Assembly (NCBI GenBank): GCA_964621305.1
Contig: CAZUOM010000002.1
Span: 73,733-137,732 of the forward strand
DNA: 64,000 bases
Reading direction: 5' to 3'
DNA from: an uncultured Gammaproteobacteria bacterium
GTDB lineage: Bacteria; Patescibacteriota; Microgenomatia; UBA10105; UBA927
The translations under genes and the position numbers were made by a program. Shown here one piece after another: positions 3,478-55,954 of the stretch; within the stretch, counting starts at the first letter, position 1; every line of letters starts with the position of its first letter. The notes below the pieces were generated by a model, which ran no database searches, was not told the DNA's origin, and saw only the letters and a list, made by a program, of their open reading frames with translations.

Positions 3478-4292
3478 CTGATCCAAACCTCTGGAACCAA
3501 CTGCTTATCTGGCCGATTGTTAATCTGTTGGTGGCCTTTTATAAATTGTTTGAGCTTTTGCACATTCCCGGCCCGTTGGGATGGGCAATCATACTTATGA
3601 CGATTGCCATTCGGCTTCTCCTTTATCCCCTCATGGAAAAGCAGCTTGCTTCAGCCAAAAAGATGGCGTCGCTCAAGCCCCACATGGATGCACTTTCCGC
3701 AAGACACAAAGACGATAAAAAGGCCCTCCAACAAGCACAACTTGCGCTTTATAAAGAGCACGGGGTAAATCCTGCCGCCGGATGTCTCCCTCTCCTGATT
3801 CAAATGCCGGTTTTGATTGCCCTCTACAACGTGTTTTATCAAATATTAAGCAACGGAAATTTGGAAAAAATGGTGGAAACCATCAATCAAGTTGTCTATC
3901 TGCCGCTATTGAAGCTGACGTCGCTTGACCCGACGTTTTTCGGAGTCAATCTCGGCATCAAACCTGAGCAGTGGCAGACACATGGCGTATGGCTTCTTTC
4001 CGTGCCGGTTATAACCGGCGCCCTCCAGTGGTGGCAATCTAAGTTGATGATCCCTCCTTCGTCGGGACAAGTGCCAAGCACTGCGTTAGCCAGCAATAAA
4101 GAAGAAAAGAAGCCGGAAGATACGGCGATGGAGATGCAAAAGCAGATGGCCATAATCATGCCCCTCATGTTTGGCTACTTCTCGCTTCAGTTTCAGTTGG
4201 GCCTGGCGCTTTACTGGAATATGTTTGGAGCGCTTGGTATTATTCAGCAATTGTCTGTGAACAGACAAAACACGGAATATGGAAGCAATTGA
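3474..4292 (+). CDS. yidC: membrane protein insertase YidC (short form)
   Basis: 272 aa, multi-TM, LYPL...QMPVLIALY, located after yidD. Confidence 0.85.
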
Positions 4293-13918: not shown

Positions 13919-14650
13919 ATGAACAGGAAGAAAACGCAACAGGTTATTGAGCTTCTTAAGAAAGAATATCCCAACGCAAAGATAGTCCTCAAGTTTAGTA
14001 ACCCGTGGGAACTTTTGGTAGCGGTGGTTTTATCAGCCCAATGCACAGACGCGGTAGTCAATAGGGTGACAGAGAAGCTTTTTGCCAAATACAAAACCCT
14101 TGATGGCTATCTAAAGGCAGACATAAAAACCTTCGAACAGGAGATAAGATCCACAGGCTTTTACCACAACAAAGCGAAAAATATTTTGGCCGCGGCAAAA
14201 CTCGTCAAGGAAAAATTTGGTGGCGAGGTGCCAAGCACGATGAGCGAGCTTTTGACGCTTCCCGGTGTGGCGAGAAAAACAGCAAACATCATTTTGGGCA
14301 ACGCGTTTAACATTATAGAGGGCATCGCTGTCGATACCCACGTGTCGCGCCTGAGCCAGCGCTTGCGGCTGGTTAATGTAGACACAATCGGCGGGAAGAA
14401 AGTTATTTTTTTCAAAAGGGGTCCCCTTGCAGCTTTGCAAGGGGACCCCTTGAAGAGAGAGATCGTAGATTATAAAAAGGACGCCGACCCGGTCAAAATA
14501 GAACGCGAGCTGATGGCGGTCGTGCCCAAACCAGATTGGTTCAAGCTCACGTATTTGTTGATCGATCACGGCCGGGCAATCTGCAAAGCCCAAAATCCCA
14601 ACTGCAGCGCCTGTGTCCTTAATAAACTTTGTCCGGCGTCACGGCTTTAA
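13919..14650 (+). CDS. nth: endonuclease III (Nth) carrying an in-frame ~36-aa insertion encoded by a palindromic element
   Basis: Start chosen at MNRKK (13919). LSAQCTD, LPGVARKTANIIL, VDTHVSRLSQRL and a C-terminal CKAQNPNCSACVLNKLCP 4Fe-4S loop. The insertion lies between the HhH-GPD core and the FeS loop and contains a 16-bp perfect inverted repeat. Confidence 0.85.
   Translation: MNRKKTQQVIELLKKEYPNAKIVLKFSNPWELLVAVVLSAQCTDAVVNRVTEKLFAKYKTLDGYLKADIKTFEQEIRSTGFYHNKAKNILAAAKLVKEKFGGEVPSTMSELLTLPGVARKTANIILGNAFNIIEGIAVDTHVSRLSQRLRLVNVDTIGGKKVIFFKRGPLAALQGDPLKREIVDYKKDADPVKIERELMAVVPKPDWFKLTYLLIDHGRAICKAQNPNCSACVLNKLCPASRL
14415..14454. repeat. palindromic in-frame element AAGGGGTCCCCTTGCA-gctt-TGCAAGGGGACCCCTT
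   Basis: Perfect 16-bp inverted repeat with a 4-nt loop inside the nth coding sequence. A near-identical copy lies in trpS at 60308-60350. Confidence 0.9.
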
Positions 14651-17135: not shown

Positions 17136-17181
17136 AGCTACAATTTGACAACTATAAAGTATCACGTTATACTTTATTGCT

Positions 17182-18171
17182 ATGAATACACTGCTTGACG
17201 CCATTGATCAAAAGAAGCGGATCCTCGACGCGCGGCGCCCTTTCCCGGTTGATCTCGTGAAAAACTTAGACCAGTGGTTTACCGTCGAGTTGACCTATAA
17301 CTCTAATGCCATCGAAGGCAATACGCTTTCTCGGGCAGAAACCGCCTTGGTTGTAGAAAAGGGGATCGTCGTAGAAGGCAAGACGCTCGTTGAGCATCTG
17401 GAGGCCGTCAACCATGCTGCTGCGTTTTCCTGGGTGAGGGAGCGGGCGGTGAAACGCACAAGGGTGTCTCTGCAGGATGTTTTGGAACTGCATCGGTTGA
17501 TACTCTCAAAAATCGACGATAGCAATGCCGGCCGTTACCGCACTGTATCGGTGCGTATTGCCGGCTCTCGGGTAGTGCTTCCCAATCCTGCCAAAATTTC
17601 CACGCTCATGGGTGATTTTTCCCTGTGGCTGGGCAAGGCAGCCGGCCACCCGGCCACCGTTGCAAGCCAAGCTCACCTCAAGCTCGTTACCATCCATCCG
17701 TTTGTCGACGGCAACGGGAGAACGGCGCGTCTCCTCATGAATCTTCTTCTTCTGGCGTCCGGCTATCCGCCGGCCATTATTAGAACCCAAGACCGGAGGC
17801 GCTACATTACCAGCATTGAAGCGGCCCAACTGGGGGGTGAGGTCGCCGAGTATTATTCCCTCATGTATGAGTCGGTTGATCGGTCGCTCTCCACCTATCT
17901 GGAAGCTTTAGATGAAAAAAGCGACAGGATAAAACTTGAAAGCAAGCCGTTTTTGACCATCGGGCAAGTAGCTAAGCTCACTGGCGAAACCGTTCCCACA
18001 ATCCGATTTTGGACCACGCAAGGGCTTCTCAGCGCTACCGGCCGCTCTGCCGGCGGTTATCAGCTCTACGGGCGCGATGTCGTTGGTCTGGCACAAAAAA
18101 TTCGCACGCTGCAGAGATCAAAACGTTTATTGCTGTCTGAAATTAAGAGCGAGCTTGCCAGAAGTATGTAA
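17182..18171 (+). CDS. Fic-family protein with C-terminal MerR-like HTH
   Basis: HPFVDGNGRTARLLMNLLL is the Fic motif. C-terminal LTIGQVAKLTGETVPTIRFWTTQGLL is a MerR-type HTH. Confidence 0.8.
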   Translation: MNTLLDAIDQKKRILDARRPFPVDLVKNLDQWFTVELTYNSNAIEGNTLSRAETALVVEKGIVVEGKTLVEHLEAVNHAAAFSWVRERAVKRTRVSLQDVLELHRLILSKIDDSNAGRYRTVSVRIAGSRVVLPNPAKISTLMGDFSLWLGKAAGHPATVASQAHLKLVTIHPFVDGNGRTARLLMNLLLLASGYPPAIIRTQDRRRYITSIEAAQLGGEVAEYYSLMYESVDRSLSTYLEALDEKSDRIKLESKPFLTIGQVAKLTGETVPTIRFWTTQGLLSATGRSAGGYQLYGRDVVGLAQKIRTLQRSKRLLLSEIKSELARSM

Positions 18172-19911: not shown

Positions 19912-20196
19912 ATGAACACGATGACGGTTTCAGCAACACACGCTAGAAACAATTTTTTTGAGCTGCTTGATCTGGTCGTAAGCGGCAGGACCATCGTGGT
20001 AAAAAAGGATACAAAGGAAGTAGCAGAAATCGTCCCGCGCAAACAAGTTTTAGACTGGCAGGGACTACTTAGGGCATCGAAAGCAAGCCAAGGCATACTC
20101 AGAAACTTCAAGCTGAGCGACAGTCCATTGAGAAAACCGCAAGCCTGGAAGCGTCTTGGGACGTGGGATAGGGGGATGCGGAAGCAAAACACATGA
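19912..20196 (+). CDS. Phd/YefM-family antitoxin
   Basis: MNTMTVSATHARNNFFELLDLVVSGRTIVVKKDTKEVAEIVP is a Phd N-terminus. Confidence 0.75.
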   Translation: MNTMTVSATHARNNFFELLDLVVSGRTIVVKKDTKEVAEIVPRKQVLDWQGLLRASKASQGILRNFKLSDSPLRKPQAWKRLGTWDRGMRKQNT

Positions 20197-20570
20197 AGGT
20201 CGTTGTTGACACGAGTATTCTTGTAGATCATCTGCGAGGAGGGGATCAATGGGTGGATTTCATTCAAAAAGCAGAACGCACGGCCTCTTTGTGTCTTCCA
20301 ACAATTGTCATCTATGAGCTTTGTGCAGGGAAAAGCGCGGAGACATTAATGGTACAGGAAAAAATTTATGAGCTTACCAGGAGGCTCCAAAAAGTTGATC
20401 TGACAGAAGAGATAGCCAGGGAAGCCGGAAGGCTCTATCGCAGCGTCACATCGAATCTGGAAGCGCCGGATTATATTATTGCAGCAAGTGCTCTTACCCT
20501 TGGGGCTTCCGTCCTGACGCTCAACCGCAAACACTTCCGCCAGGTCCCCGGCTTAGTAATCGCCTCATGA
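20193..20570 (+). CDS. vapC: PIN-domain toxin (VapC)
   Basis: MKVVVDTSILVDHL... with acidic PIN residues. ATGA overlap with the phd gene. Confidence 0.8.
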   Translation: MKVVVDTSILVDHLRGGDQWVDFIQKAERTASLCLPTIVIYELCAGKSAETLMVQEKIYELTRRLQKVDLTEEIAREAGRLYRSVTSNLEAPDYIIAASALTLGASVLTLNRKHFRQVPGLVIAS

Positions 20571-21652
20571 AAACGTGGCAAAAACTTAAACAAGACCCAA
20601 AACTCTGGGAGCGGTATTTTGTGAGGGAGAAGGTAATAAAGGCTATCCGCAGGTTTTTTTTTGACCGGGGGTTTCACGAAGTGGAAACGCCCTACCTGAC
20701 AGGGAGCCTGCCTCCCGAATCATACCTTGATGTTTTTGAGACCATTCTCCTTGACCGGCATCGCCGGCCGAAACAAGCGTTTTTACCCACATCTCCGGAG
20801 CCGTTTCTCAAAAAACTCCTCGTTGCCGGCATTGGGAATTGCTTTGCTCTTCCCAAAAGCTTTCGCAACACCGAAGACATGAGCCGGACGCACAATCCGG
20901 AGTTTACGATCCTCGAGTGGTATCGGGTTAACAGTGATTACACCGATATCATGGCCGACTGCGAGGAGCTTCTTGTTTTTATAAATGCCTATTTACAAAG
21001 GAGTAGCTCAGGTCACGGCTCCGTGAAATTAACCGACCTTTTCTACCAAAAAAAACGAGTTGATCTCTCCGGCCCGTGGGAGCGGCTCTCTATGGTTGAG
21101 GCATTCCACCGGTACGCAAAGATAGATCTTACCCGCGCTTTAACCCGCCACACTCTGGCCCCGATTGCCAAGAAGAAAGGATATACTGTGGACGAAGCCT
21201 ATGGATGGGAGGAGCTATTTGACCAGATATTTCTCAATGAGGTTGTGCCGCACCTGGGGCGGGGGAGGCCGACCATCGTCTATGATTATCCGCTCGCACT
21301 TGCCGCGCTTTCGCAGAAGAAAAAATCCGATCCACGGTTTGCAGAACGGTTCGAGTTTTACATTGAAGGGCTTGAGCTTGGAGACGCATACACAGAGCTC
21401 ACTGACTGGAAAGAGCAGCTAGAGCGGTTTCGACTGGAAGAGAGGGAGCGTAAACGTCTGGGAAAGGTGGAGCACCCCATAGACATGGACTTTATTGAAG
21501 CGCTCAAGGTAGGATTGCCTCCCTCCAGCGGGATTGCGGTAGGTGTGGATCGCCTCGTGATGCTATTTGCGGATACAAACGACATTGCTAACACGCTGTT
21601 TTTCCCAGGGAAAGAATTATTTCTTAACCGCCCTGGCAAGCTCTCCAAGTAA
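20567..21652 (+). CDS. epmA: EF-P lysine aminoacylase EpmA/PoxA-like (class II LysRS catalytic-domain paralog)
   Basis: Class II motifs FHEVETPYLT, FRNTEDMSRTHNPEFTILEWY and GIAVGVDRLVMLF. No anticodon-binding domain is present. Confidence 0.7.
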   Translation: MKTWQKLKQDPKLWERYFVREKVIKAIRRFFFDRGFHEVETPYLTGSLPPESYLDVFETILLDRHRRPKQAFLPTSPEPFLKKLLVAGIGNCFALPKSFRNTEDMSRTHNPEFTILEWYRVNSDYTDIMADCEELLVFINAYLQRSSSGHGSVKLTDLFYQKKRVDLSGPWERLSMVEAFHRYAKIDLTRALTRHTLAPIAKKKGYTVDEAYGWEELFDQIFLNEVVPHLGRGRPTIVYDYPLALAALSQKKKSDPRFAERFEFYIEGLELGDAYTELTDWKEQLERFRLEERERKRLGKVEHPIDMDFIEALKVGLPPSSGIAVGVDRLVMLFADTNDIANTLFFPGKELFLNRPGKLSK

Positions 21653-22072
21653 TTCTTTTGGATTAACAATACGCAAAGGCGCAACGTTTTTTCGGACCTC
21701 TGCTCGCAGAAGGTGTTTTTTGTCGAGCGTGACCAGATATGTACACTGTGCTCCTTGTGCGCCCACCAACAGGTGCGCATCCGTCGATTCGACGATGCCT
21801 GAGACCTTTTCTATTTCCGCCTGGGTTACCCGTTCCCGAACCATCAGACCGGAGTTTTTGATAAACCAGGAGATTTCTTCGGGAGTTTGTTGGATTTTTT
21901 CCGCGTGATCGGCCACTTCATCAATAACCGTTTGTGAAGTAATGGCGACAATGGCTTTATTTTTTGTCAGCATGAGGAGTTTGGCGGATCCCCCGGTTGG
22001 CGAAAGGATGGCCGCGATTATGACGGACGCATCAAAGAATACGGTCGTCTTTGAGGAATGTTTTGATTTCAT
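21617..22072 (-). CDS. PIN-domain protein (toxin)
   Basis: ...VFFDASVIIAAIL... is PIN-like. Overlaps the upstream AbrB-type gene. Confidence 0.65.
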   Translation of the reverse strand: MKSKHSSKTTVFFDASVIIAAILSPTGGSAKLLMLTKNKAIVAITSQTVIDEVADHAEKIQQTPEEISWFIKNSGLMVRERVTQAEIEKVSGIVESTDAHLLVGAQGAQCTYLVTLDKKHLLRAEVRKNVAPLRIVNPKELLGELARAVKK

Positions 22073-22274
22073 CGTCGGTGTAGATCCTGTAGGGGGCAGG
22101 TGGTGATTTGGGAAACGTAAGCACGACGTTTTTGCCCCGCTTACTTGCTTTTATCACGTCGCCCTCGGCAATTCCGAGATCTATCCGCCATTTTTTCGGG
22201 ATGGTAATCATGCCTTTTCCGAGAATTTTGAGCCACTCGTCTTGGGCTATGTTTGAAGTCAGTTGTAGTGCCAT
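22032..22274 (-). CDS. AbrB/MazE/SpoVT-type antitoxin
   Basis: 80 aa, ITIPKKWRIDLGIAEGDVI looped-hinge helix motif. Confidence 0.7.
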   Translation of the reverse strand: MALQLTSNIAQDEWLKILGKGMITIPKKWRIDLGIAEGDVIKASKRGKNVVLTFPKSPPAPYRIYTDDEIKTFLKDDRIL

Positions 22275-22388
22275 AGGTTTAACTTTCTACATTGTAAACT
22301 TTCTAACTTTGGCTGTCAAGAGCCTAGTTTGTTTGGCAATAGTCCCTATTGCAGTATAATAAACATGTCTCCAAGGGGGGGGATTTTT

Positions 22389-22952
22389 ATGTCAACGATC
22401 ACTACCGCACAATTTAAAAAAGGGATATTTATTGAGTTTAAAGGTGAGCCGCACCAGATTGTGGACATGCAGTTTGTCAATCCTGGCAAAGGGAGTGCAT
22501 TTGTGCGGACGAGCCTCAAGTCCCTCAAAACCGGCAAAGTCCAAGACTTTACCTATAAATCCGGTGAATCTGCGGCGGAAGTGCCCATCCAAACCCACGA
22601 AATGCAGTATCTCTATAAAGAGGGGAACCGCTATGTATTCATGGACAATTTTACCTATGATCAAGTATCAGTTGCCGAAGCAATTCTTGAGGATTATCTG
22701 GACTATTTAAAACCCAACGAGGCGTACCAGGTACTCCTGCATGGGGAAACACCCATGGGCATTCGGTTTCCGAAGAAAGTACGCTTGAAGGTAACCCACG
22801 CAGAGGAGGGGGCACGCGGCAACACAGTCTCCGGAGCTGGGAAGGTCGTGGAAGTCGAAACCGGAAAAAAAGTGACAGTGCCGCTGTTTATCAAAGAGGG
22901 CGATACTATTGCCATTGATACCGAAACCGGTGCCTACCTCGAGCGGGCGTAG
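22389..22952 (+). CDS. efp: elongation factor P
   Basis: MSTITTAQFKKGIFIEFKGEPHQIV..VNPGKGSAFVRT with the conserved modifiable Lys in the PGKG loop. Confidence 0.9.
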   Translation: MSTITTAQFKKGIFIEFKGEPHQIVDMQFVNPGKGSAFVRTSLKSLKTGKVQDFTYKSGESAAEVPIQTHEMQYLYKEGNRYVFMDNFTYDQVSVAEAILEDYLDYLKPNEAYQVLLHGETPMGIRFPKKVRLKVTHAEEGARGNTVSGAGKVVEVETGKKVTVPLFIKEGDTIAIDTETGAYLERA

Positions 22953-22955
22953 CTC

Positions 22956-22992
22956 TTGACAACATATACACCATCTGTTATGGTGTATATGT
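22956..22992. promoter_or_regulatory. TTGACA -35 box followed by a 13-bp inverted repeat (ACATATACACCAT ctgtt ATGGTGTATATGT); candidate autoregulatory operator of the RHH-PIN module
   Basis: Read directly. Lies immediately upstream of the RHH gene start at 22997. Confidence 0.55.
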
Positions 22993-22996
22993 ATAT

Positions 22997-23254
22997 ATGC
23001 AGCGATACCAAATATACCTTGATCCACACACCGTAACTATTTTGGATGATGCTTAATCTATAAGCAACGCTTCTCGTTCTCAACTCATCCGTATGGCAGC
23101 CGAAGCGGTGAGCGAAAATTTTGCAAAAATTCTAGCCGTGGTCAAGCCTGCAAATGATCGGTACACCCACCTTAATAATCTCGCTGGATTCATCAAGCCC
23201 AAAACTAAACAACCGACCAACTATGCCACGAAACGTGACCGTGACTATCTCTGA
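22997..23254 (+). pseudogene. RHH (CopG-family) antitoxin gene with in-frame TAA nonsense codon at 23054-23056
   Basis: MQRYQIYLDPHTVTILDDA*SISNASRSQLIRMAAEAV... is continuous and RHH-like across the stop. The downstream PIN gene is intact. Confidence 0.6.
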
Positions 23255-23259
23255 GGCGA

Positions 23260-23688
23260 ATGAAAGTTTTTATTGATACCAGCGCCTTCATTGCCCACTT
23301 TGTTGCAAGCGAACAACACCACCGCATCGTAGAAGAACGATTCCGGCAGAATTTCAGAGAGCGTGCTATATTCCTCACATCCGACTACGTTCTGTCTGAA
23401 CTCTTTACGCGCGTTGTCTACGATTTTGGACGAAATGCACCGGAGAAAACAATCAAGGAAATACGAGCAGCTCTATCCAAAGGTGAAATTCAAATACTTA
23501 CCATTGACGCCGCAACGTTTTCCCGATCCATGGATGTTATGATAAAGTTTTCCGATCACCCGATCTCACTCACAGACGCATCCATTGTCGTACTATACAA
23601 AAATCTGGCACTTGATGAAATGTTTACTCTTGATTCGGACTTCAAAAAACTCAAACTGACGGTTTCTTTTCCCCGTCTATCAACATAA
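23260..23688 (+). CDS. PIN-domain toxin (VapC-like)
   Basis: MKVFIDTSAFIAHF...LTSDYVLSEL... Confidence 0.75.
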   Translation: MKVFIDTSAFIAHFVASEQHHRIVEERFRQNFRERAIFLTSDYVLSELFTRVVYDFGRNAPEKTIKEIRAALSKGEIQILTIDAATFSRSMDVMIKFSDHPISLTDASIVVLYKNLALDEMFTLDSDFKKLKLTVSFPRLST

Positions 23689-23832
23689 GACAGTGCGTAA
23701 CCAGCTTGGTCGCCATCGACACCGAGACTGGACAGTGCTTGGAGCGGGCGTAAACATGGAAAAATATATCATTTTGAGGACTTAAATTCCCAATTACTTG
23801 ATATTTTTTAGGACATATGATATGCTGGGGGC

Positions 23833-24963
23833 ATGTTGTACCGGCACTATCAGGACATTGAGAAACTCCTGGAGGCCAACAAAGCGCTCATTCTGCTTGG
23901 TCCACGACGCGTAGGGAAGACGACTATTCTTACAGAGTTTCTCAAAAACACATCACTCAAGTATCGTTTAGACAATGGAGACAATCTTGCCACTCGGGAC
24001 ATTTTGGGATCTCAACGCTTTGATCGAATTTTTCGATATGCCGAAGGATATGAGCTCATTGCCATAGACGAGGCCCAGCGTATTTCCAATGTGGGAATGG
24101 GTATCAAAATCTTAGTTGATCAAATTCCTGGTATTCGGGTCATTGCGACCGGTTCAGCAAGTTTTGATTTGTCGCATCAGGTGGGCGAACCGTTAGTCGG
24201 GAGAAAACGGACACTTACCATATATCCTCTGGCTCAACAGGAATTATTACATGGTGCAAGCCCTCATGATTTGGAGCAGCAAAAAGAAGATTATCTAGTT
24301 TTTGGGAGCTACCCTGAGGTATTGACTGCAAAAACCGAAGGAGAGAAGCGTGATATTCTTACTGATATTGCCCAGTCTTATCTACTCAAAGACATACTGG
24401 AATTAGACCGGGTCCGCGGATCCGCAACACTTGTTCGGCTTGTTCAACTTTTAGCGCTGCAAGTTGGGAGCGAGGTTTCTCGCTTGGAACTTGCAAGCAA
24501 TCTTGAAATTGATGTCAAAACTGTGACGCGCTATTTAGATTTATTAGAGAAGGCGTTTGTAATTTTCGAGGTTAGAGCGTATCACCGGAATCTTCGGAAA
24601 GAGCTCATGAAGAAAAGTAAGTATTTTTTTTATGATACAGGGATCAGGAACGCAGTCATTTCAAACTTTAACCGCATGTTTGTTCGTGATGACGTAGGGA
24701 GGCTATGGGAAAATTTTTGCATTGTGGAGCGGCGGAAAAAGCAAGAGTATTCCCGCCTGTACGCCAACAATTACTTTTGGCGGACGTGGGATCAAAAAGA
24801 GATAGACTGGGTGGAGATGCGGGAAGGGAAACTGTTTGGCTATGAGATAACGTGGGGGACGCAGAAAAAAATGAGGTCGAAGAACGCATGGCTTGCCGCG
24901 TATCCGAATGAAGCGGAATTTGAACTTATTAACCAGGAGAACTATCTTTCGTTTATCACATAA
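23833..24963 (+). CDS. AAA-family ATPase with DUF4143-type C-terminal domain
   Basis: ALILLGPRRVGKTT Walker A, AIDEAQ Walker B, about 376 aa. Confidence 0.7.
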   Translation: MLYRHYQDIEKLLEANKALILLGPRRVGKTTILTEFLKNTSLKYRLDNGDNLATRDILGSQRFDRIFRYAEGYELIAIDEAQRISNVGMGIKILVDQIPGIRVIATGSASFDLSHQVGEPLVGRKRTLTIYPLAQQELLHGASPHDLEQQKEDYLVFGSYPEVLTAKTEGEKRDILTDIAQSYLLKDILELDRVRGSATLVRLVQLLALQVGSEVSRLELASNLEIDVKTVTRYLDLLEKAFVIFEVRAYHRNLRKELMKKSKYFFYDTGIRNAVISNFNRMFVRDDVGRLWENFCIVERRKKQEYSRLYANNYFWRTWDQKEIDWVEMREGKLFGYEITWGTQKKMRSKNAWLAAYPNEAEFELINQENYLSFIT

Positions 24964-25061
24964 TATCAGAAGATATTATCGCAATTCTTCTTCTACATTA
25001 CCCGTTAGGCTTATAAACTGATGCTTTTCACTTATCGCTTTTCAATTTATACTAAGTCTAT

Positions 25062-26546
25062 ATGCCCGAAGAATTTTTTGGTGATATCAGCGATCAAAAG
25101 ATGCCGCCGACGTACAGATTTTTCAATGGTACACAATGGGTACAAAGCGCAAGCGGAAAAACCACCGAAGTAAAATCTCCTATTGATAACTCCGCTCTCG
25201 GCAGCCTTCAAGTTGTTTCAACTGCAGAAATTGACGCTGTGATGGGAAAGGCCGTTGCGGCTCAAAAGACCTGGGAAGTAACACCTCTTAATCGGCGCGT
25301 CAAAATAATGCATTTGGCGGCTGATTGGATTCGACATTTTGAGGACTATCTAACTAACCTCCTTGTCTGGGAAATCGGCAAAACCAGCGAAGAGGCAAAG
25401 AGTGAAATCAAGCGGACAGCTGACCTGACTGATTATTTCGCCGATGAAGCACAATCCATCCGAGGAGAGGGGTTGGATAGTGACAACTTTCCGGGCTACG
25501 ATAAAGGACGAATTGCCATTGTGGAGCGCGTAGCCCACGGGGTGGTAGTGGCTATCGCTCCTTTTAACTATCCGGTTAACCTTGCCGCAAGCAAGATTGC
25601 CCCCGCTTTACTCATGGGAAATAGTGTTGTTTTTAAGCCACCCACACAGGGCGGCATAAGTGGCGTTCACTTGGCGCAGATTTTCAGGAAAGCCGGAGTG
25701 CCGGATGGAGTTTTATCCTGTATTACCGGAGGTGGCGCGGATATCGGCAATTATCTGGTCGGACACAAAAGGGCAGACATGATTGCATTTACCGGCTCCT
25801 CAGACACGGGGGTTGCGATAGCAAAAGTAGCCGGAATGAAGCCGCTGCTTTTTGAATGCGGAGGCAATAACCCGGCAGTGGTTTTGCCTGATGCGGACGC
25901 CAACCTTGCAGCACGGGAAATTGTCAAAGGGGCATTTTCTTACGCAGGGCAACGGTGCACGGGGATAAAATACGTTTTAGGAACCCGAGAAATACTAGAA
26001 ACACTAGAAACTCTGGTGGTAAAAGCGCTCGGCGAACTCGTGCATAAGGGCGATCCAAGAAGTCCGGAAACGAAAATGGTAGGACCGGTGATTTCGGAAG
26101 CTGCAGCCATCCACATTGAGGAATTGATTAATGCATCAGTGAAGGCCGGGAGCAAGATTTTGGTTGGAGGTAAACGCAACAAGGCTTATATCGAGCCAAC
26201 GATTCTAGTTAATGTCAATCCAATAATGCCAACGGTTACCAATGAAGTCTTTGGCCCGGTCGTTTCGTTTGTTACCCTAGCTGATTACGGAGAAGCAGCC
26301 AAAATCATCAATGACTCACGGTTCGGCTTGCAAGCGTCTGTGTTTACCAAGGACGTAGGCACTGGGTTAACCTTTGCCAAGCAACTTAATGTGGGAACTG
26401 TTCAAATTAACGGTTCTCCACAAAGGGGCCCGGACCATTTTCCTTTTCTCGGCGTCAAACAGTCCGGCGTCGGGGTCCAGGGAGTACGCTATTCCCTCGA
26501 GGCCATGTCCCGCTTGCGGCCGATTGTGATCAATAAACCCGCTTGA
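25062..26546 (+). CDS. aldehyde dehydrogenase family, GapN-like (non-phosphorylating G3P dehydrogenase)
   Basis: FNYPVNLAASKIAPALLMGNSVVFKPP, FTGSSDTGVAI, FECGGNNP and GQRCTG (catalytic Cys). Confidence 0.75.
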   Translation: MPEEFFGDISDQKMPPTYRFFNGTQWVQSASGKTTEVKSPIDNSALGSLQVVSTAEIDAVMGKAVAAQKTWEVTPLNRRVKIMHLAADWIRHFEDYLTNLLVWEIGKTSEEAKSEIKRTADLTDYFADEAQSIRGEGLDSDNFPGYDKGRIAIVERVAHGVVVAIAPFNYPVNLAASKIAPALLMGNSVVFKPPTQGGISGVHLAQIFRKAGVPDGVLSCITGGGADIGNYLVGHKRADMIAFTGSSDTGVAIAKVAGMKPLLFECGGNNPAVVLPDADANLAAREIVKGAFSYAGQRCTGIKYVLGTREILETLETLVVKALGELVHKGDPRSPETKMVGPVISEAAAIHIEELINASVKAGSKILVGGKRNKAYIEPTILVNVNPIMPTVTNEVFGPVVSFVTLADYGEAAKIINDSRFGLQASVFTKDVGTGLTFAKQLNVGTVQINGSPQRGPDHFPFLGVKQSGVGVQGVRYSLEAMSRLRPIVINKPA

Positions 26547-26571
26547 CATGTGCATAATTATTTTGTAATAT
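26543..26571 (+). promoter_or_regulatory. sigma70-like promoter (TTGACA-17-TAATAT) upstream of the RHH-PIN module
   Basis: Read directly. Confidence 0.45.
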
Positions 26572-26574
26572 GTA

Positions 26575-26832
26575 ATGCGTATGACACAACTTGTAGTCCG
26601 CATCAGCGATGATCAACAAAGACAATTAATGCTTCTTGCACATCGAGAGCAGAAGCGTATTTCTGACGTGGTTCGCGATGCGCTGGAGGAGCATTTCCGG
26701 TCCAAAATGAAGACAGGGAAAAACGAACTCCTGGCGCTTGCTGAGATTGGCAAACGGTATAAAGGGAAGAAGTATCCGGCGGATCTCTCTACCAACTACA
26801 AGCGCTATCTGTATGGGGACAAGCGGATATGA
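26575..26832 (+). CDS. RHH (CopG-family) antitoxin
   Basis: ...MTQLVVRISDDQQRQLMLLAHREQKRISDVVRDALEEHF. Confidence 0.7.
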   Translation: MRMTQLVVRISDDQQRQLMLLAHREQKRISDVVRDALEEHFRSKMKTGKNELLALAEIGKRYKGKKYPADLSTNYKRYLYGDKRI

Positions 26833-27218
26833 TTTTTGTCGACGCTTCATTTTACGTGAGTCTCCTCAAGCCTTCTGACAGAAACCACGATAATGCAGTA
26901 GCGCTCGCCAGAGAGCACGGCATGGCCCCGAAAATTACATCGCAAGCAGTGTTGGGAGAGCTGGCAACAGTAGGATCGCAGCGATTCAGCAAGGAAGCGA
27001 CGATTGTATTTATTGAAGACATACTTCGCGGCAGCACGACGACGATTCTTTTTGACACACACGAGTTTGTGACCCGAGCGTTGGAGATTTTCAAGAAAGT
27101 CAAAAACAAGAATATAAGCTGGGTGGACTGCTATTCGCGAGCAATCATCGAAGCATACAAGATTGAAACGGTTTTGACGTTTGATAAGGACTTCCAAAAA
27201 ATGGCCCGTGCGAAGTAA
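26829..27218 (+). CDS. PIN-domain toxin
   Basis: MIFVDASFYVSLL.... Paralog of 29759-30148. Confidence 0.75.
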   Translation: MIFVDASFYVSLLKPSDRNHDNAVALAREHGMAPKITSQAVLGELATVGSQRFSKEATIVFIEDILRGSTTTILFDTHEFVTRALEIFKKVKNKNISWVDCYSRAIIEAYKIETVLTFDKDFQKMARAK

Positions 27219-27339
27219 ATTTCCCTGTTTTAACAACTCCATATCGTTATCCCTAAGCGCATCGTATGTGCAGCAGACCGTATCGCTCAAGAGGCATATG
27301 CCGTACAGGCAGAGAGAAGGAGCTAGTCGGGTTAAAGGG

Positions 27340-28857
27340 TTACTCCCATTCCATTGTCGCTGGGGGTTTAGTCGTAATGTCGTAGACGACGCGAGAAACT
27401 CTTGGGACCTCATTGACTATTCTTGATGACATAGCTGCGAGTACTTCGTACGGAAGATGCGACCACTGGCTGGTCATGATGTCCACAGATTCATACGCCC
27501 GGATGGCGACCACCTCGCCGAATACGCGGCCGTCGCCCTTGACTGCTGTGGAGTACGCGCCGGTCATGACGGCAAAGCACTGAAAAACGCTATCGTAAAG
27601 TTTTGCGGCTTTGACTTCTTCAACAACAATCCGATCCGCAATTTTTACCTGCGCGAGCCGAGCCTCGGTTACTTCGCCGCGGATCCTGACTGCGTAGCCC
27701 GGACCGGGAAAAGGATGTTCGGCGATGATGTCTTCCGGAAGCCCAGCGAGGCGGCCCAACTCACGCACTTCGTCTTTGTAGTAGTTGCGCAACGGCTCAA
27801 GAAGGGTAAGCTTTAAACTTTTTGGCAAGCCCCCAACATTGTGATGCGACTTGATATGGGAGGCGTGTTTGGTGCCTCTAGACTCAATCACATCAGAATA
27901 AATCGTCCCTTGGCCCAAAAAAGCGGCGTCTTTATATTTATTTGCCTCTTTTTGAAAAATGTCGATATAAAGTTTACCAATGGTTTTTCTTTTCGCTTCG
28001 GGATCTGTAACTCCCTTAAGCGCTGTTAAGAATCGTTTTTTTGCGTCAACAATAGTTAGTTTAGCCTTAATTAATTTATTAAAAATATACCGCACGCGTG
28101 CATCTGTTTCCGGACGCATGAGGCCACTATCAACGTAGATGGGAATAAGATTTTTGCCAATAGCTTTTCCAATTAAAAATGCGGCGACTGTTGAGTCGAC
28201 ACCTCCAGATACTGCACAGATAGCTTTTTTATTTCCAACTGACTCTTTAATACCCTGGATTATTTTTTGTAGACTAAGCGAAAGAGGGGTAAGTGTTTCA
28301 CCACAGACATCGCACGCAAAATTTTGAAGCATGGTAAGGCCCTGCTCTGTATGGTGTGCCTCCGGGTGAAATTGAACGCCAAACAACTGCCTGGTTAGGT
28401 CTACAACAGCGGCATTGATGACGCTTCTAGTTGAACCAGCGACCTCAAACCTCTTAGGCAGTCGGACGACCGTGTCTCCATGAGACATAAAAACAGAGCA
28501 GGATCGTTTCGGTAAAGAAAAAACGCCATCCTTTTTCTTAAACTGCACTTGTTGGGGGCCATATTCTTTCTGAGTGTTGCGAACTTCACCGCCCAAAAGT
28601 TTTGCCATCAGTTGCCAGCCGTAGCAGATAGCCAAAATGGGGATACCGGCATCAAATATTTCCGGATCAATTGTGGGCACTCCCTTGTCATAGACGCTCG
28701 CCGGCCCGCCGGAGAGGATTAACCCCTTCGGTTTCAGTAAAGAAATTTGTTCAAGCACATCCTCCGGATTTATAATGTTGACCGCAACACCTATGTCCCG
28801 TATCCGCCGGGCAATAAGATGCGCCATCTGTGAACCGAAGTCAACGATGAGAATCAT
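27340..28857 (-). CDS. guaA: GMP synthase (glutamine-hydrolysing)
   Basis: N-terminal GATase (MILIVDFGSQMAHLIARRIRDIGV) and SGGVDSTV PP-loop. Confidence 0.9.
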   Translation of the reverse strand: MILIVDFGSQMAHLIARRIRDIGVAVNIINPEDVLEQISLLKPKGLILSGGPASVYDKGVPTIDPEIFDAGIPILAICYGWQLMAKLLGGEVRNTQKEYGPQQVQFKKKDGVFSLPKRSCSVFMSHGDTVVRLPKRFEVAGSTRSVINAAVVDLTRQLFGVQFHPEAHHTEQGLTMLQNFACDVCGETLTPLSLSLQKIIQGIKESVGNKKAICAVSGGVDSTVAAFLIGKAIGKNLIPIYVDSGLMRPETDARVRYIFNKLIKAKLTIVDAKKRFLTALKGVTDPEAKRKTIGKLYIDIFQKEANKYKDAAFLGQGTIYSDVIESRGTKHASHIKSHHNVGGLPKSLKLTLLEPLRNYYKDEVRELGRLAGLPEDIIAEHPFPGPGYAVRIRGEVTEARLAQVKIADRIVVEEVKAAKLYDSVFQCFAVMTGAYSTAVKGDGRVFGEVVAIRAYESVDIMTSQWSHLPYEVLAAMSSRIVNEVPRVSRVVYDITTKPPATMEWE

Positions 28858-29093
28858 GGTGTTTGTCGAGAAAACCAGTAGATGGTTTTCTGGTCACGTG
28901 TGTTCACTACAAAGGCCGATGGCGTTTCAAAAGCTTGGTGGTAGACCTGCGGAGGCTCTGCATCTCGTTTTAGTGTCCACTCTTCAATGTGGAGCGACCC
29001 TTCACCTTTCTCCGCTGAAACCGTTACTGTTTCACCTGGACCGATGGCGACGGTGACCACTGTACTATCGATATAGATGTTCTTTTCTTCCAT
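28854..29093 (-). CDS. hypothetical small protein co-transcribed upstream of guaA
   Basis: 79-aa ORF overlapping the guaA start. No motif recognised. Confidence 0.35.
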   Translation of the reverse strand: MEEKNIYIDSTVVTVAIGPGETVTVSAEKGEGSLHIEEWTLKRDAEPPQVYHQAFETPSAFVVNTRDQKTIYWFSRQTP

Positions 29094-29129
29094 AGTTCAG
29101 ACGCAGCGCTAATACTGCAGCTTATATAG

Positions 29130-29711
29130 TCATTTAAGATAGTATTTTTTGACGAATTGTAGTTCTTGATCCGTATAGCCGAGCGTGTGTAAAAATCGCC
29201 GTGCTTCGGCGCTTGGTTTTTCTTCCTTTTTTAATTGTTTGCTAATAAGAATGGTCATTTCGGTGGGTTCATAAGGGAAAAGGATCCAACGGCTGGTTTG
29301 TTTGACGAAAAAGTCTGGTCGGTACACCGAGTGCGGCTTGTAAAAGAGCGTGGCGCTGGTTACAGTTGCCGGTCGGAAGCGGGAGAGATAGCGAAGAGCG
29401 CGTTTAAGGGTTTTGCCTGAGTCGGCGACGTCGTCGACGATCAGGACCTGCTTCCCACCAACTGGAGCGGTGAGTTTTCCGGTGATCTTCAACTCCCCCT
29501 GCGTTTGAATATCCGTGTAGCTTTGGATGGTGATGGTGGAGATGGGGATTTGGAGGAGATCGCTCATGAGGTGGCCAAGCGTCAAGCCGCCGCGGGCAAT
29601 GGCGACGATTTCATCTGGTTTATTCTTTTGCGCGAGGATTTTTTCCGCGAGGGATTGCGAGAGAGAGTGATATTCGTTCCACGAAACCGGTAGGTATTTT
29701 ATATCCGGCAT
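29130..29711 (-). CDS. hpt: hypoxanthine/xanthine-guanine phosphoribosyltransferase
   Basis: VLIVDDVADSGKTL is the PRT motif. Confidence 0.75.
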   Translation of the reverse strand: MPDIKYLPVSWNEYHSLSQSLAEKILAQKNKPDEIVAIARGGLTLGHLMSDLLQIPISTITIQSYTDIQTQGELKITGKLTAPVGGKQVLIVDDVADSGKTLKRALRYLSRFRPATVTSATLFYKPHSVYRPDFFVKQTSRWILFPYEPTEMTILISKQLKKEEKPSAEARRFLHTLGYTDQELQFVKKYYLK

Positions 29712-29758
29712 AAGCTATTATGCATCTGAAGACGTTTCGTTGTCAATCTGTTTGTGCA

Positions 29759-30148
29759 TTAGGGGAGGGGGCGGAGGCCGAAGAATTTGAAGTGGCGGTC
29801 AAAGGTGAGGATTTTTTTGGTTTTCAATTCTTTGCAGATTGCCACGGTGATGCAGTCAATAAGGGAGACATCTTTTTGGACTTTTGGATTGAGGAAAAGT
29901 GCGAGACCGGCCTGAAAACGTTCATGAGAGACTGGAAGGATGGTGTAATCGGCTAAAATTTTTTGGCATGCATCGATGCTCGCGATTTTTCCCATCCGTT
30001 GGCTCACGACGGTGAGCGTTTCTTTTATAACGTCTTCGGACGTGACGAGTTCGTTTTCGTCGGTGGGATAAAGACGCATGGCCCGAGAGAAGTTTCGGTC
30101 CGTGGTAAAGAAAAATGATACAAAAAAACTCGCGTCAACGAATATCAT
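29759..30148 (-). CDS. PIN-domain toxin
   Basis: MIFVDASFFVSFF.... Paralog of 26829-27218. Confidence 0.75.
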   Translation of the reverse strand: MIFVDASFFVSFFFTTDRNFSRAMRLYPTDENELVTSEDVIKETLTVVSQRMGKIASIDACQKILADYTILPVSHERFQAGLALFLNPKVQKDVSLIDCITVAICKELKTKKILTFDRHFKFFGLRPLP

Positions 30149-30426
30149 TGGTTTGCGTGCTTCTTCGGCGTTCCGTATACGTAGTGGTCAAGTTCAATAG
30201 AGACATCCGTGGGTGTTCCCGGCGGGGTAGGGTGTTTTTTATGAAATGCATCAAGCCACTTCAGAAAGTCCTGGCGGCGCTGTTTAGGCGTCAGCTTGGG
30301 TTCCACGTAGTGTTTGATAGACCTGCGTATGACGTCAGAGACAGAGGTGCCTTCTCGTTTGGCTTGCTCCTGGGCGAGTCGGTAAGTGGCCGGATCGATA
30401 TAGAGTTGCGTGCGTTTCATTAGCAT
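30145..30426 (-). CDS. RHH (CopG-family) antitoxin
   Basis: MLMKRTQLYIDPATYRLAQEQAKREGTSVSDVIRRSIKHYV. Confidence 0.7.
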   Translation of the reverse strand: MLMKRTQLYIDPATYRLAQEQAKREGTSVSDVIRRSIKHYVEPKLTPKQRRQDFLKWLDAFHKKHPTPPGTPTDVSIELDHYVYGTPKKHANQ

Positions 30427-30465: not shown

Positions 30466-30493
30466 GCTTGACGGGTATCAAAGGGAGAATATA
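30466..30493 (+). promoter_or_regulatory. sigma70-like promoter TTGACG-16-TATAAT followed by AGGAG and ATG
   Basis: Read directly: ttgacgggtatcaaagggagaatataataggagcATG. Confidence 0.55.
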
Positions 30494-30501
30494 ATAGGAG
30501 C

Positions 30502-31101
30502 ATGCAAGCCCTGAAGTATGCCTCTGTCGCCATCTCCGGCAGGCCCGGGGCGGGTAGATCAACGCTTCTAAAAAATCTCCGGCAATACCTTGAGCCTCTC
30601 GGTTGGGAATTTTTTTCCGGTGGCGACTGGTCGCGGCAGTTTTCCATAGCCGCCGGCAAGCAGGATCCCAATGACCCCAAACATCATGTTGCCACTGACT
30701 ATGGAGACGAGATTGATCATCAAATTGATGCAGCGATGCGGCAGAAAGTTTCTGACCCAAATGTCCACATGGCAATTGAGTCCTGGATTGCAGGCTGGAA
30801 TGCACGAGAGATACAGCATGTTCTGCGTGTTCTTTTGATGTGCGATGACGCACTGCGTATAGACCGAATTGTCAACCGAGATGGAGTTGCTGTGGAAGAA
30901 GCAAAAAAACACTTGCGGGAGCGGGAGGAAACAAACCTTGGAAAATGGAAGCGTATGTACGGAGTCGACGACTTTTGGGACCCAAAACACTATGATCTGA
31001 TAATAAACACTTACTCACATAGCCCCAAAGAAACTCTTGATCTTGTCCTTCAGGCCCTCGGCTACTTTTCCGCAAACGGACAGCAAAAAGAGACAATATG
31101 A
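30502..31101 (+). CDS. cytidylate-kinase-like AAA-family nucleotide kinase
   Basis: ISGRPGAGRSTL is a P-loop. About 199 aa, resembling archaeal-type CMP kinase. Confidence 0.55.
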   Translation: MQALKYASVAISGRPGAGRSTLLKNLRQYLEPLGWEFFSGGDWSRQFSIAAGKQDPNDPKHHVATDYGDEIDHQIDAAMRQKVSDPNVHMAIESWIAGWNAREIQHVLRVLLMCDDALRIDRIVNRDGVAVEEAKKHLREREETNLGKWKRMYGVDDFWDPKHYDLIINTYSHSPKETLDLVLQALGYFSANGQQKETI

Positions 31102-36169: not shown

Positions 36170-36709
36170 ATGTCGATCTACACCCGTACCGGTGACGACG
36201 GAACGACCGCGCTTTTTGGCGGAAAGAGGGTCTTAAAATGCGAAGATCTCGTGGATGCCTATGGTTCTTTAGATGAGCTCAATTCGTGGGTTGGATTCAT
36301 CGCCTCGCAGAGTAAAGAACAGAGCGAGAAAAAATTTCTTCAAACAATACAATCAGACCTTTTTACCATTGGGAGTACGCTGGCCGGATGGAAGGGGGAT
36401 ATAACACAACTGGGCAAACGCGTTATAGAAATGGAACAATGGATCGACCGGATGGAAAAAGTCCTGCCAGAACTTACGAACTTTATTCTTCCCGGCGGGT
36501 CAACCAACGGAGCACGAGTTCATTTGGCGCGAAGCGTTTGCCGGCGGGTTGAACGAAAAATTGTTGCGTTGAAGAAAAAACAAGAGGTTGATCTATCTAT
36601 TATTGAATATCTTAACCGTTTTTCGGACTTGCTATTTACTCTGGCGCGAATTATAAATAAGGACGCAAACGTACCAGAAATAATTTGGAATAGTAGAAAA
36701 AAAGCTTGA
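36170..36709 (+). CDS. PduO-type ATP:cob(I)alamin adenosyltransferase
   Basis: MSIYTRTGDDGTTALFGGKRVLKCEDLVDAYGSLDELNSWVG is the PduO-family N-terminus. Confidence 0.85.
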   Translation: MSIYTRTGDDGTTALFGGKRVLKCEDLVDAYGSLDELNSWVGFIASQSKEQSEKKFLQTIQSDLFTIGSTLAGWKGDITQLGKRVIEMEQWIDRMEKVLPELTNFILPGGSTNGARVHLARSVCRRVERKIVALKKKQEVDLSIIEYLNRFSDLLFTLARIINKDANVPEIIWNSRKKA

Positions 36710-36877
36710 TTGGGGGAATCGTGGTGCAATCCCACGGCTGTGCCGCAACTGTATAGCCAGACTACCCAATCACGCGTCATCCCAGCATCACCAGAATGTG
36801 CTGGGTAAACCTTCGAGCAAAGGGCAGTTTTTATACGCGCCTTCTCGCTCGAGGAGGTTTTTTGATGGGAAATAGAT

Positions 36878-42652: not shown

Positions 42653-42725
42653 GGGCCGGTAGCTCAGTGGTAGTAGCACTACTCTTATAAAGTAGGGGTC
42701 GATGGTTCGATCCCATCCCGGCCCA
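42653..42725 (+). tRNA. tRNA-Ile (anticodon UAU)
   Basis: Cloverleaf folded by eye: acceptor GGGCCGG/CCGGCCC, anticodon stem CTACT/AGTAG, loop cTTATaa, T-arm GATGG-TTCGATC-CCATC, discriminator A. No CCA is encoded. Confidence 0.7.
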
Positions 42726-42763
42726 CATAAGCAAAGAGAACACATCATACATCTAAAGAGCAT

Positions 42764-51418: not shown

Positions 51419-51811
51419 GGGGATGAGTGATTCGACGGGGAGAGCACGTTAAAAACTGCAAGCCGGCGATGACAAAAGAGCCGTAAAAATTTGTCAAATC
51501 TAACTGCTAATATTATTAGCGAGGAAGACGAGCAAGCGCTTCTTGCGTTAGCTCTCTCCCGACGTCAAGCACGATTGGCTTTTGCCTATCAAGCGTAAAC
51601 GTCCATCTCTAAAGTTGTTTTCTCGGTGACTCTCTTGAGGTGTAAAAACAGCCGAGGCGTCAGGAGTCAATTGACCGATTGATTCCGGAGTAAAAGGTCA
51701 AACCATTGTACGGTTTTTGTCCGTTTTTATCGTATAATGTATCAAACGGACTACGCTTGTAGATGTTTAGATGTGCTCCTTCGGACCCGGGTTCATTACC
51801 CGGCATCTCCA
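51419..51811 (+). ncRNA. ssrA: tmRNA (ssrA)
   Basis: 5' GGGGATGAGTGATTCGACGGGG (canonical GGGG.UG...GAUUCGACGGGG). 3' tRNA-like end GGACCCGGGTTCATTACCCGGCATCTCC-A with acceptor pairing GGGGATG/CATCTCC including the G3-U70 Ala identity pair. About 393 nt, immediately downstream of smpB. GCT resume codon at nt 88. Confidence 0.85.
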
Positions 51812-51813
51812 CA

Positions 51814-55378: not shown

Positions 55379-55423
55379 CCAAATATGCTTGCACTGAGGA
55401 TCTGCCAGCCGGCGGAGGCCAAG

Positions 55424-55495
55424 TGCCAGCGGCAGGGATTGAACCTGCTACCCTCGCCTTATGAAGACGGTGCTCTACCAATGAGCTACGCTGGC
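55424..55495 (-). tRNA. tRNA with CAU anticodon (Met or Ile2-lysidine type)
   Basis: Reverse complement GCCAGCG-TA-GCTC-ATTGGTA-GAGC...ttCATaa...GCAGG-TTCAATC-CCTGC-CGCTGGC-A. The anticodon stem is only 4 bp with a U-G pair. Confidence 0.65.
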
Positions 55496-55923: not shown

Positions 55924-55954
55924 CAAAAAACCACTCATTATGAGTGGTTTTTTG
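55924..55954. terminator. bidirectional intrinsic terminator hairpin AAAAAACCACTCAT-ta-ATGAGTGGTTTTTT
   Basis: Read directly: perfect 13-14-bp stem flanked by an A-run and a T-run. Confidence 0.75.

Follow-up and report, generated by a model that had tools for sequence, protein, structure and literature searches.

Introduction

RHH-type VapBC systems, such as FitAB of Neisseria gonorrhoeae and the modules known from M. tuberculosis (5x3t, 3h87) and Klebsiella (7by2), share a bicistronic layout in which the antitoxin gene comes first. In experimentally truncated antitoxins, the C-terminal part is able to neutralise the toxin on its own, as is known for the C-terminal 41 residues of CcdA, the C-terminal domain of Phd, and C-terminal peptides of RelB and VapB. 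By textbook expectation, the toxin must be the first part that a toxin–antitoxin (TA) locus loses. Restarts of translation beyond a nonsense codon are known from lacI and T4 rIIB. Bacterial termination–reinitiation coupling (Huber et al. 2019 and 2023, PMC6728339, PMC10666635) typically involves gene pairs spaced by −8 to +10 nt, and in native E. coli gene pairs a distance of about 38 nt cuts reinitiation by 80–100% (PMC10666635). In Haloferax, reinitiation is nearly abolished at 22–23 nt.

Here, we analyze a locus within a 64-kb stretch of metagenomic DNA, referred to below as the window. The region 22956–23688 is best explained as a compact type II toxin–antitoxin cassette of the VapBC kind, comprising its own promoter, a palindrome, an 85-codon RHH antitoxin gene, and a PIN toxin gene. 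Codon 20 of the antitoxin, which specifies Glu in the homologs, has most likely become TAA through a real, evolutionarily recent, and lineage-specific nonsense mutation that is tolerated.

The cassette resembles RHH-type VapBC in its PIN toxin with intact acidic residues, in a gap of −4 to +6 nt between the two genes, in an antitoxin family that combines an N-terminal RHH domain with a disordered C-terminal tail, and in an operator-like palindrome over the promoter. In contrast to VapBC, the RHH domain of the window allele is cut by a nonsense codon, so that there is no full VapB; neither Pfam nor NCBIfam recognises the antitoxin clade from its sequence; a leaderless transcript is implied by the geometry of the promoter; and the module belongs to a CPR host. 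Both the architecture and the proposed mechanism point to a VapBC-type RHH–PIN module. Because the window allele lacks one defining VapBC feature, the intact antitoxin, it is best filed as a disrupted member of this group. It is not a new kind of system, and the finding is ordinary in kind.

Three further comparisons are instructive. As in truncated antitoxins, the 53-aa ORF left open in the window would correspond to a toxin-binding module minus the DNA-binding module, for which neutralisation without autoregulation is the expected phenotype; the truncated antitoxins are laboratory constructs, whereas the window contains a natural split whose putative expression depends on a restart. With the restart and coupling cases (lacI, T4 rIIB; Huber et al.), the locus shares an in-frame AUG that is the first start after the premature stop and a downstream gene that would be coupled by a 5-nt gap, but the restart distance of 36 nt is at or beyond the range of native E. 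coli pairs. It is like decaying or orphan TA loci, the pseudogenised modules of reduced genomes, in that one TA copy out of many carries a lone nonsense mutation specific to its lineage and in that a clearly decayed relative exists (locus L013). In such loci, however, the toxin is usually lost first, as in L013, whereas in the window and in locus L012 the DNA-binding half of the antitoxin went first.

Organization of the cassette and its promoter

An earlier reading of this DNA, made from the letters alone and called here the sequence-only reading, had described an antitoxin gene with an in-frame nonsense codon upstream of a PIN gene. The nonsense codon was confirmed. The antitoxin frame extends over 22997–23254 (85 codons), is interrupted at codon 20, and then resumes to its native TGA at 23252–23254 (Table 1). 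Directly upstream of the cassette lies efp, which ends in TAG at 22950–52.

Table 1. Features of the RHH–PIN cassette, with positions counted along the window
Feature	Position	Strand	Remarks
−35 box TTGACA	22956..22961	+	Left edge of the mobile cassette; 3 nt past the efp stop
Operator-like palindrome ACATATACACCAT-ctgtt-ATGGTGTATATGT	22962..22992	.	Takes up the spacer of the promoter, with overlap into the −10 box
Extended −10 box TG-t-TATGGT	22976..22984 (hexamer 22979–22984)	+	From promoter scan
N-terminal antitoxin remnant	22997..23056	+	19 sense codons MQRYQIYLDPHTVTILDDA (RHH β-strand and most of helix A), then TAA
Premature stop TAA	23054..23056	+	Ancestral codon 20; Glu in homologs
Twelve orphaned codons SISNASRSQLIR	23057..23092	+	S21–R32: helix A–B loop, SRS motif, start of helix B
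53-codon ORF, Met33–Leu85	23093..23254	+	MAAEAV... to the native TGA; P0004, called in NCBI and Logan
PIN-domain (VapC-like) toxin gene, 142 aa	23260..23688	+	Intact; 5 nt past the antitoxin stop; ends in TAA

The promoter scan identified TTGACA-17-TATGGT, with 10/12 matches and a TG ahead of the −10 box, and the homologs carry TATGGT or TATGAT at the −10 position. TATAAT-like boxes are also found 5–8 nt before the ATG of many other genes in the window. The 13-bp inverted repeat that had been noticed immediately after TTGACA proved to be perfect, with arms of 13 nt (22962–22974 and 22980–22992) that are 100% complementary across a 5-nt loop, and it is conserved with the cassette in other loci. 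Perfect inverted repeats of at least 13 nt occur at three loci in the 64 kb and in none of 30 Markov simulations; the palindrome thus exceeds chance. In VapBC systems, autoregulation acts through a palindromic operator in the promoter; the palindrome is a putative operator of this kind, in an allele without the DNA-binding domain.

Two other roles of the palindrome were considered. An intrinsic terminator of efp was ruled out, as there is no T-run and no terminator call, and the palindrome is conserved in loci without an upstream efp. A role as an RNA structure was unsupported, since the differences between the arms among loci are mismatches, with no compensatory pairs.

The end of the −10 hexamer is separated from the antitoxin ATG by 12 nt in the window and by 6–9 nt in the other loci, and no Shine-Dalgarno sequence was found before the window antitoxin ATG. 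Given the proximity of the −10 box to the ATG together with this lack of a Shine-Dalgarno sequence, the operon mRNA is probably leaderless or provided with only a very short leader.

The antitoxin family and its predicted fold

A search with the read-through sequence against 5.8 billion proteins returned three intact 85-aa homologs, with 88, 84, and 79% identity and Glu at position 20 in each, along with the 53-aa C-terminal ORF as called in NCBI and Logan. The homologs confirm that the frame on the two sides of the stop reads as one continuous protein. The assignment of this protein to the RHH class was borne out by its wider family and predicted fold, but not by direct domain searches: neither Pfam nor NCBIfam gave an RHH match when the read-through protein and its closest homologs (P0001–P0003) were scanned, and a phmmer search of P0001 against the PDB found nothing.

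To the family, a profile search of 1.84 billion cluster representatives contributed 101 related clusters, nearly all of them 84–90 aa in length. In the alignment of 51 members, the positions M1, R3, Y4, Q5, Y7, L8, D17, R27, S28, G64, D81, and Y84 are near-invariant. When the members were scanned individually with Pfam, RHH_1 (PF01402) was matched by 19 of the 51 (best E = 3.6e-6) and RHH_3 by 8 of the 51; the top PDB matches of the family profile were YiiF (E = 0.01) and a CopG-family regulator (E = 0.04). AF2 modeling of the intact homolog P0001 produced a strand (residues 1–9), helix A (10–23), and helix B (27–48) at pLDDT 86–96, i.e., the β-strand, helix A, helix B topology of an RHH domain, followed by a low-confidence tail (residues 50–85). 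Nearly all of the top 50 PDB matches of this model in Foldseek were RHH repressors or antitoxins, including CopG, AtaR, ParD, TacA, VapB, the RHH domain of PutA, and Arc, with an rmsd of 1.1–2.3 Å over 39–47 residues; the E-values were weak (0.14 or more) because the RHH domain is so small. Profile matches and model clearly indicate an RHH clade, one that is poorly covered by curated profiles.

Because the TAA is located inside helix A, the window allele is unable to form the RHH fold itself. Judging from the model, the best explanation is that the TAA abolishes the half of the antitoxin responsible for DNA binding and dimerisation. An intact small antitoxin, another feature of VapBC, is thus found in the relatives of 85–90 aa, whereas in the window only the C-terminal 53 codons are open.

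The C-terminal ORF

The 53-aa ORF comprises half of helix B, on its C-terminal side, together with all of the conserved, predicted-disordered tail. In the P0001 model, Met33 is placed midway along helix B. The conserved tail motif LxxLxGxI...K..T...D..YL falls wholly after residue 33. In VapB-type antitoxins, the C-terminal tail occupies the toxin active site (VapB architecture, PMC5389673), and we infer that the 53-aa fragment is a putative toxin-neutralising module. It is devoid of the dimerisation domain and may be unstable. When the natural fusion protein P0139 was modeled by AF2 with a PIN-only alignment, confidence was confined to the PIN half, the antitoxin part reaching pLDDT 30–75.

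No start codon is present in any frame within the twelve orphaned codons, and the ATG at 23093 is the first ATG, GTG, or TTG in any frame past the TAA, being in-frame and 36 nt downstream. This in-frame ATG at Met33 pre-exists in all close relatives. It is not preceded by a Shine-Dalgarno sequence, and its accessibility in the predicted 5' mRNA fold is unremarkable (unpaired probability of 0.49 vs. 0.54 overall). For annotation, what NCBI calls as a 53-aa ORF is a piece of a disrupted antitoxin gene rather than a gene family in itself.

The PIN toxin

The sequence-only reading had called the downstream gene intact, and this stands: the 142-aa ORF matches PF01850 (E = 2.3e-12). The residues D6, T7, E47, D106, D125, and D127, invariant in an 18-sequence family alignment, are all present, so that the check proposed for the catalytic acidic residues found every one of them at an invariant column. 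More than 150 homologs of the protein were found; those that carry a name are annotated as VapC toxins from Microgenomates-group CPR bacteria. Omega of the PIN gene was 0.10 against locus L002. The window toxin is predicted to be a VapC-like ribonuclease, and the idea that it might be inactive, which would have offered one way out of the apparent lethality of the locus, is unsupported in view of the retention of every invariant residue at an omega of ~0.1. A CPR host is also deduced from the 838-aa DUF4012 protein of the window, the best named relatives of which are from Candidatus Gottesmanbacteria and Patescibacteria.

Copies of the cassette at other loci

Ten other copies of the cassette were identified (L002, L003, L004, L005, L006, L008, L010, L011, L012, and L013). 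Similarity among the loci starts exactly at TTGACA and stops just past the PIN stop, and the flanks are unrelated; 22956–23688 therefore moves as a block, and the cassette appears to be horizontally mobile. The operator core ATACAYCAY N5 ATGRTGTAT is conserved in L002–L006 and L010–L012, whereas L008, at a contig end, has the right arm only and L013 has a degraded right arm. A scan of genome contigs with the operator pattern recovered a contig-end copy in a MAG labelled Gammaproteobacteria. In L010, the antitoxin body is much more diverged, yet the promoter, the operator core, and the N-terminal strand MQRYQIYLDP are kept, a pattern that would fit an RHH β-strand reading a fixed operator.

The gaps between the antitoxin stop and the PIN start were 5, 5, 5, 4, −4, 2, and 6 nt in seven loci. 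No Shine-Dalgarno sequence is conserved before the PIN start among the relatives; the window PIN has GAGG 3 nt ahead of its ATG.

Pairwise omega was ~0.1 for the PIN gene, for the N-terminal 32 antitoxin codons, and for the tail, with no excess decay in the N-terminal part. In both genes, the terminal branch is longest in the window lineage. Its PIN carries 11 private changes, none at an invariant site, as against 1–9 in the relatives, and its antitoxin carries 5, as against 0–2. D60N, one of the private antitoxin changes, lies within the tail motif. The state seen in R11H is common across the wider family. The excess of private changes in the window antitoxin, D60N included, could mark early decay. 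The branch data are compatible with a recent mutation, and a maintained split and a freshly dead operon would fit them equally well.

Two of the copies are themselves damaged. L012 has the same promoter and operator, with a frameshifting deletion of ~17 nt that removes the RHH loop and the SRS motif; it keeps an open tail ORF and an intact PIN of 137 aa. L012 is an independent parallel in which the DNA-binding half was lost and the tail and toxin were kept, and it hints that cassettes of this family could have evolved along such a path repeatedly in CPR bacteria. The L012 tail ORF could start only at an internal ATG that is out of frame and precedes the frame-0 stop; as there is no plausible restart codon, a restart fails to explain expression of the tail in that locus. 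In L013, the PIN gene is almost wholly deleted and helix B of the antitoxin is deleted as well, in addition to the damage to the operator, and the locus is a decay remnant that followed the usual route. The antitoxin P0161, with an in-frame deletion of helix B, was weighed as another parallel but discarded, since it is encoded at L013, which has lost nearly the whole PIN gene.

The premature stop codon

Comparison with homologous loci showed that codon 20 is Glu in all intact homologs and GAG in the four loci aligned at the DNA level. TAA differs from the GAG of the relatives at two bases and is thus not a one-base miscall; the change was presumably made in two steps, via GAA or TAG. The same TAA was found in the Logan assemblies of SRR6943130 (6,429 nt, 0 mismatches) and SRR6261452 (14,697 nt, 0 mismatches), which supply the loci L001 and L014. 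Together with the 184-kb NCBI contig from which the window comes, it is shared by three assemblies that derive from at least two sequencing runs. All three are short-read metagenome assemblies, 100% identical to each other, and represent one clonal population, so that across two or more runs the TAA reflects the consensus of a single population and is not proof of age. Among the 5.8 billion proteins, there was no intact allele of the window lineage, the closest intact homolog being 88% identical, and a scan of JGI metagenomes for the window allele with NNN at the stop position found nothing.

Two of the explanations offered by the sequence-only reading would do away with the nonsense mutation, and both are unlikely on the sequence evidence. 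That the TAA arose as an error in sequencing or assembly, or is a minority variant that consensus calling has fixed, is conceivable insofar as all sources are short-read metagenome assemblies and the three identical ones sample a single clonal population. We consider it very unlikely, given that the assemblies agree across different pipelines and at least two runs, that the codon is two positions away from GAG, that the change is a substitution with no homopolymer indel, and that no intact allele of the lineage was found. A full-length antitoxin produced by decoding of the stop, whether by read-through, a suppressor tRNA, or a variant code, seems scarcely credible. The frame is clean across the stop and the orphaned codons are undegraded, which speaks for decoding; however, of the 40 long ORFs in the window, 14 end in TAA, among them the neighboring PIN, whose homolog ends at the same position. 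TAA followed by T, as found here, is a strong termination context in E. coli, and the four tRNAs of the 64-kb window are all ordinary, with no suppressor among them. The stop is moreover unique to the window lineage and is thus no conserved recoding site.

Proposed basis for tolerance of the nonsense allele

The sequence-only reading had argued that loss of the antitoxin of a functional toxin should be lethal, a premise that does not hold for a loss confined to the DNA-binding half. Translational coupling, which that reading left out, offers a further explanation. The inter-gene gaps of −4 to +6 nt are within the coupling range, so termination–reinitiation coupling fits the spacing of the genes. 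With the PIN start 5 nt past the antitoxin stop and no conserved Shine-Dalgarno sequence, the premature stop would be polar on the toxin, and such polarity would remove most of the lethality paradox.

In the proposed mechanism, translation of PIN would depend on ribosomes that complete the antitoxin frame, as suggested by PIN starts located −4 to +6 nt from the stop in the relatives. After the TAA, the PIN start would be reachable only by ribosomes that restart at ATG 23093, and each of these would first make the neutralising tail fragment (Met33–Leu85). Toxin output would be strongly reduced and would never rise above the output of the tail fragment. In this scheme, coupling of PIN initiation to completion of the antitoxin frame would keep the toxin from exceeding the tail fragment, and the allele would be tolerated. 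Loss of the RHH half would also abolish autorepression at the palindrome: with no RHH dimer, the operator would be unoccupied and the promoter constitutively on.

The best explanation is hence a recent nonsense allele of a VapBC-like RHH–PIN module that is tolerated through coupling and a restart at the tail, and we hold it with confidence and doubt in roughly equal measure. The restart, the neutralisation by the fragment, the loss of repression, and the leaderless start are all elements that we infer. Of the five ways out that had been listed for the paradox, the restart at MAAEAV is the best that survives, but at a distance of 36 nt and with no Shine-Dalgarno sequence it is probably weak or absent, so that possibly no tail fragment is produced. 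The coupling explanation is weakest at the GAGG before the window PIN, which could permit some independent initiation and break the stoichiometry argument.

If the tail fragment is not made, the best explanation merges into another, namely that the operon is dead: there is no restart and no independent entry at PIN, neither protein is made, and PIN is intact only because the mutation is too young for more decay to have followed; a neutralising fragment would then be unnecessary. Both explanations rest on coupling and differ only in the amount of restart. A dead operon is possible but doubtful. It agrees with the near abolition of reinitiation at ~38 nt in E. coli pairs and at 22–23 nt in Haloferax, with the lack of a Shine-Dalgarno sequence at ATG 23093 and of a conserved SD-like sequence ahead of PIN among the relatives, with the window antitoxin having the most private changes, with the L012 tail ORF being without a plausible restart codon, and with L013 as a clear decay remnant of the same cassette. 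It is at odds with the GAGG just upstream of the window PIN and with the absence of relaxed constraint in the N-terminal codons, the tail, and PIN, where the terminal branch is too short to decide; the in-frame ATG as the first start after the stop is also convenient for a restart, though it is present in all close relatives. The opposite outcome, a split that is functional and maintained, in which the tail is expressed alone by post-termination restart and neutralisation is uncoupled from autoregulation, is unlikely. Finally, the toxin may be expressed but neutralised in trans, by a non-cognate antitoxin from another part of the genome, much as the sequence-only reading had suggested for another RHH protein. 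Four other PIN-type TA pairs do lie within 10 kb, and one of the neighboring antitoxins is an RHH protein, distantly related (27% identity over 81 aa). Nevertheless, the four neighboring antitoxins are unlike the 53-aa tail (best E = 3.6), the neighboring PINs are at most 24% identical to the window PIN, and there is no second copy of the antitoxin family in the 64-kb window; cross-neutralisation, which thus finds no support within the window, is highly improbable.

Implications

The locus is of modest interest for its natural split between the antitoxin domains, for damage that struck the antitoxin first, and for a probably leaderless, coupled operon design in a CPR host. If the operon is dead, it is one more pseudogenised TA copy and of local interest only. 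If the split is maintained, a self-repressed VapBC module would have become one that is constitutively transcribed and translationally throttled. If the tail alone restrains PIN, the locus would be a natural experiment on the modularity of type II antitoxins. It also provides a concrete case for the distance limits of reinitiation and for the translation of leaderless operons in CPR bacteria. If the preferred explanation by coupling and tail restart is true, coupling would make an antitoxin-first mutation survivable, against the expectation that the toxin goes first.

Copies and a natural fusion of the RHH–PIN cassette

Of the other loci that carry relatives of the studied RHH–PIN cassette, three are described here. 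One member of the cassette family, an independent copy, occupies positions 481–1184 of locus L012, where a deletion of about 17 nt in the antitoxin has removed the RHH loop together with its SRS motif and shifted the frame. A 65-aa open reading frame (P0219) keeps the C-terminal tail open, and the PIN gene, encoding 137 aa, is intact. The copy at positions 610–930 of locus L013 is a cassette remnant in decay; its operator has a degraded right arm, its antitoxin (P0161, 69 aa) has lost helix B in frame, and its PIN gene is reduced to the final ~17 codons. A tRNA gene directly adjoins this remnant. At the third locus, L005, the cassette promoter, the operator and the antitoxin start MQRYQIYLD were found at the extreme contig end (positions 3599–3663); the contig belongs to a MAG that bears the label ‘uncultured Gammaproteobacteria’. 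Either horizontal transfer of the cassette or misbinning of a CPR contig could account for this copy.

The protein P0139 (229 aa) is a natural single chain in which a full-length antitoxin of the studied cassette’s family is fused to its PIN toxin, with a short linker between them (…YLADWNDS-MKVFIDT…). Loss of the stop codon could have produced it, or it could be a genuine fused toxin–antitoxin (TA) protein.

Genomic surroundings of the cassette

Including the studied cassette, five PIN-type TA pairs are crowded into a stretch of about 10.5 kb in the window (19921–30426; the other four are listed in the table), with housekeeping genes between them: efp, an EpmA-like tRNA-synt_2 gene, and genes for an aldehyde dehydrogenase and a GMP synthase. 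Within 20567–22952, the MazE–PIN_3 pair is inserted on the opposite strand between efp and the EpmA/PoxA-like gene, whose 361-aa product is a lysyl-tRNA-synthetase paralog. The ends of the EpmA-like and PIN_3 genes overlap by 36 nt (21617–21652).

Features mapped in the window
Feature	Position	Strand	Evidence
Phd/YefM-like + PIN	19921–20570		
MazE/AbrB-like + PIN_3	21617–22274	−	
RHH-like protein (85 aa) + PIN	26575–27218		
RHH_1 + PIN	29759–30426	−	
AdoCbl-II (cobalamin) riboswitch aptamer	36704–36775		40.4 bits, barely over the gathering threshold of 36.5
tRNA-Ile, anticodon TAT (UAU)	42653–42726		
tmRNA gene, full-length	51419–51814		Rfam, 108.6 bits
tRNA-Met	55423–55495	−	
Group I intron, complete	55582–55828	+	Rfam, 62 bits, E = 2.4e-13
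TATAAT-like hexamer site	17160–17184		
TATAAT-like hexamer site	23798–23835		
TATAAT-like hexamer site	25040–25064		
TATAAT-like hexamer site	29711–29735	−	
TATAAT-like hexamer site	30480–30504		

RNA elements, palindromes and putative transcript starts

At the group I intron called by Rfam, the plus strand showed neither an rRNA nor a tRNA gene that could serve as host. About 100 nt 3′ of the intron, near 55922–55950, lies a long perfect palindrome (inverted repeat of at least 13 nt); a second, at 14416–14450, consists of perfect inverted repeats nested in one another, whose arms measure at least 13 nt and whose loops measure 4–10 nt. The tmRNA gene was missed by the ARAGORN tRNA/tmRNA scan and picked up by Rfam. 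Most bacteria decode AUA with a lysidine-modified CAU tRNA; a tRNA with a UAU anticodon, such as the tRNA-Ile listed here, is an uncommon bacterial means of reading this codon. Downstream of the AdoCbl-II aptamer lies a 616-aa open reading frame (36878–38728); such a riboswitch is noteworthy for a reduced CPR genome.

In many genes of the window, a TATAAT-like hexamer ends 5–8 nt 5′ of the ATG and no Shine–Dalgarno sequence is present, a sequence pattern which suggests that this organism commonly uses leaderless mRNAs.
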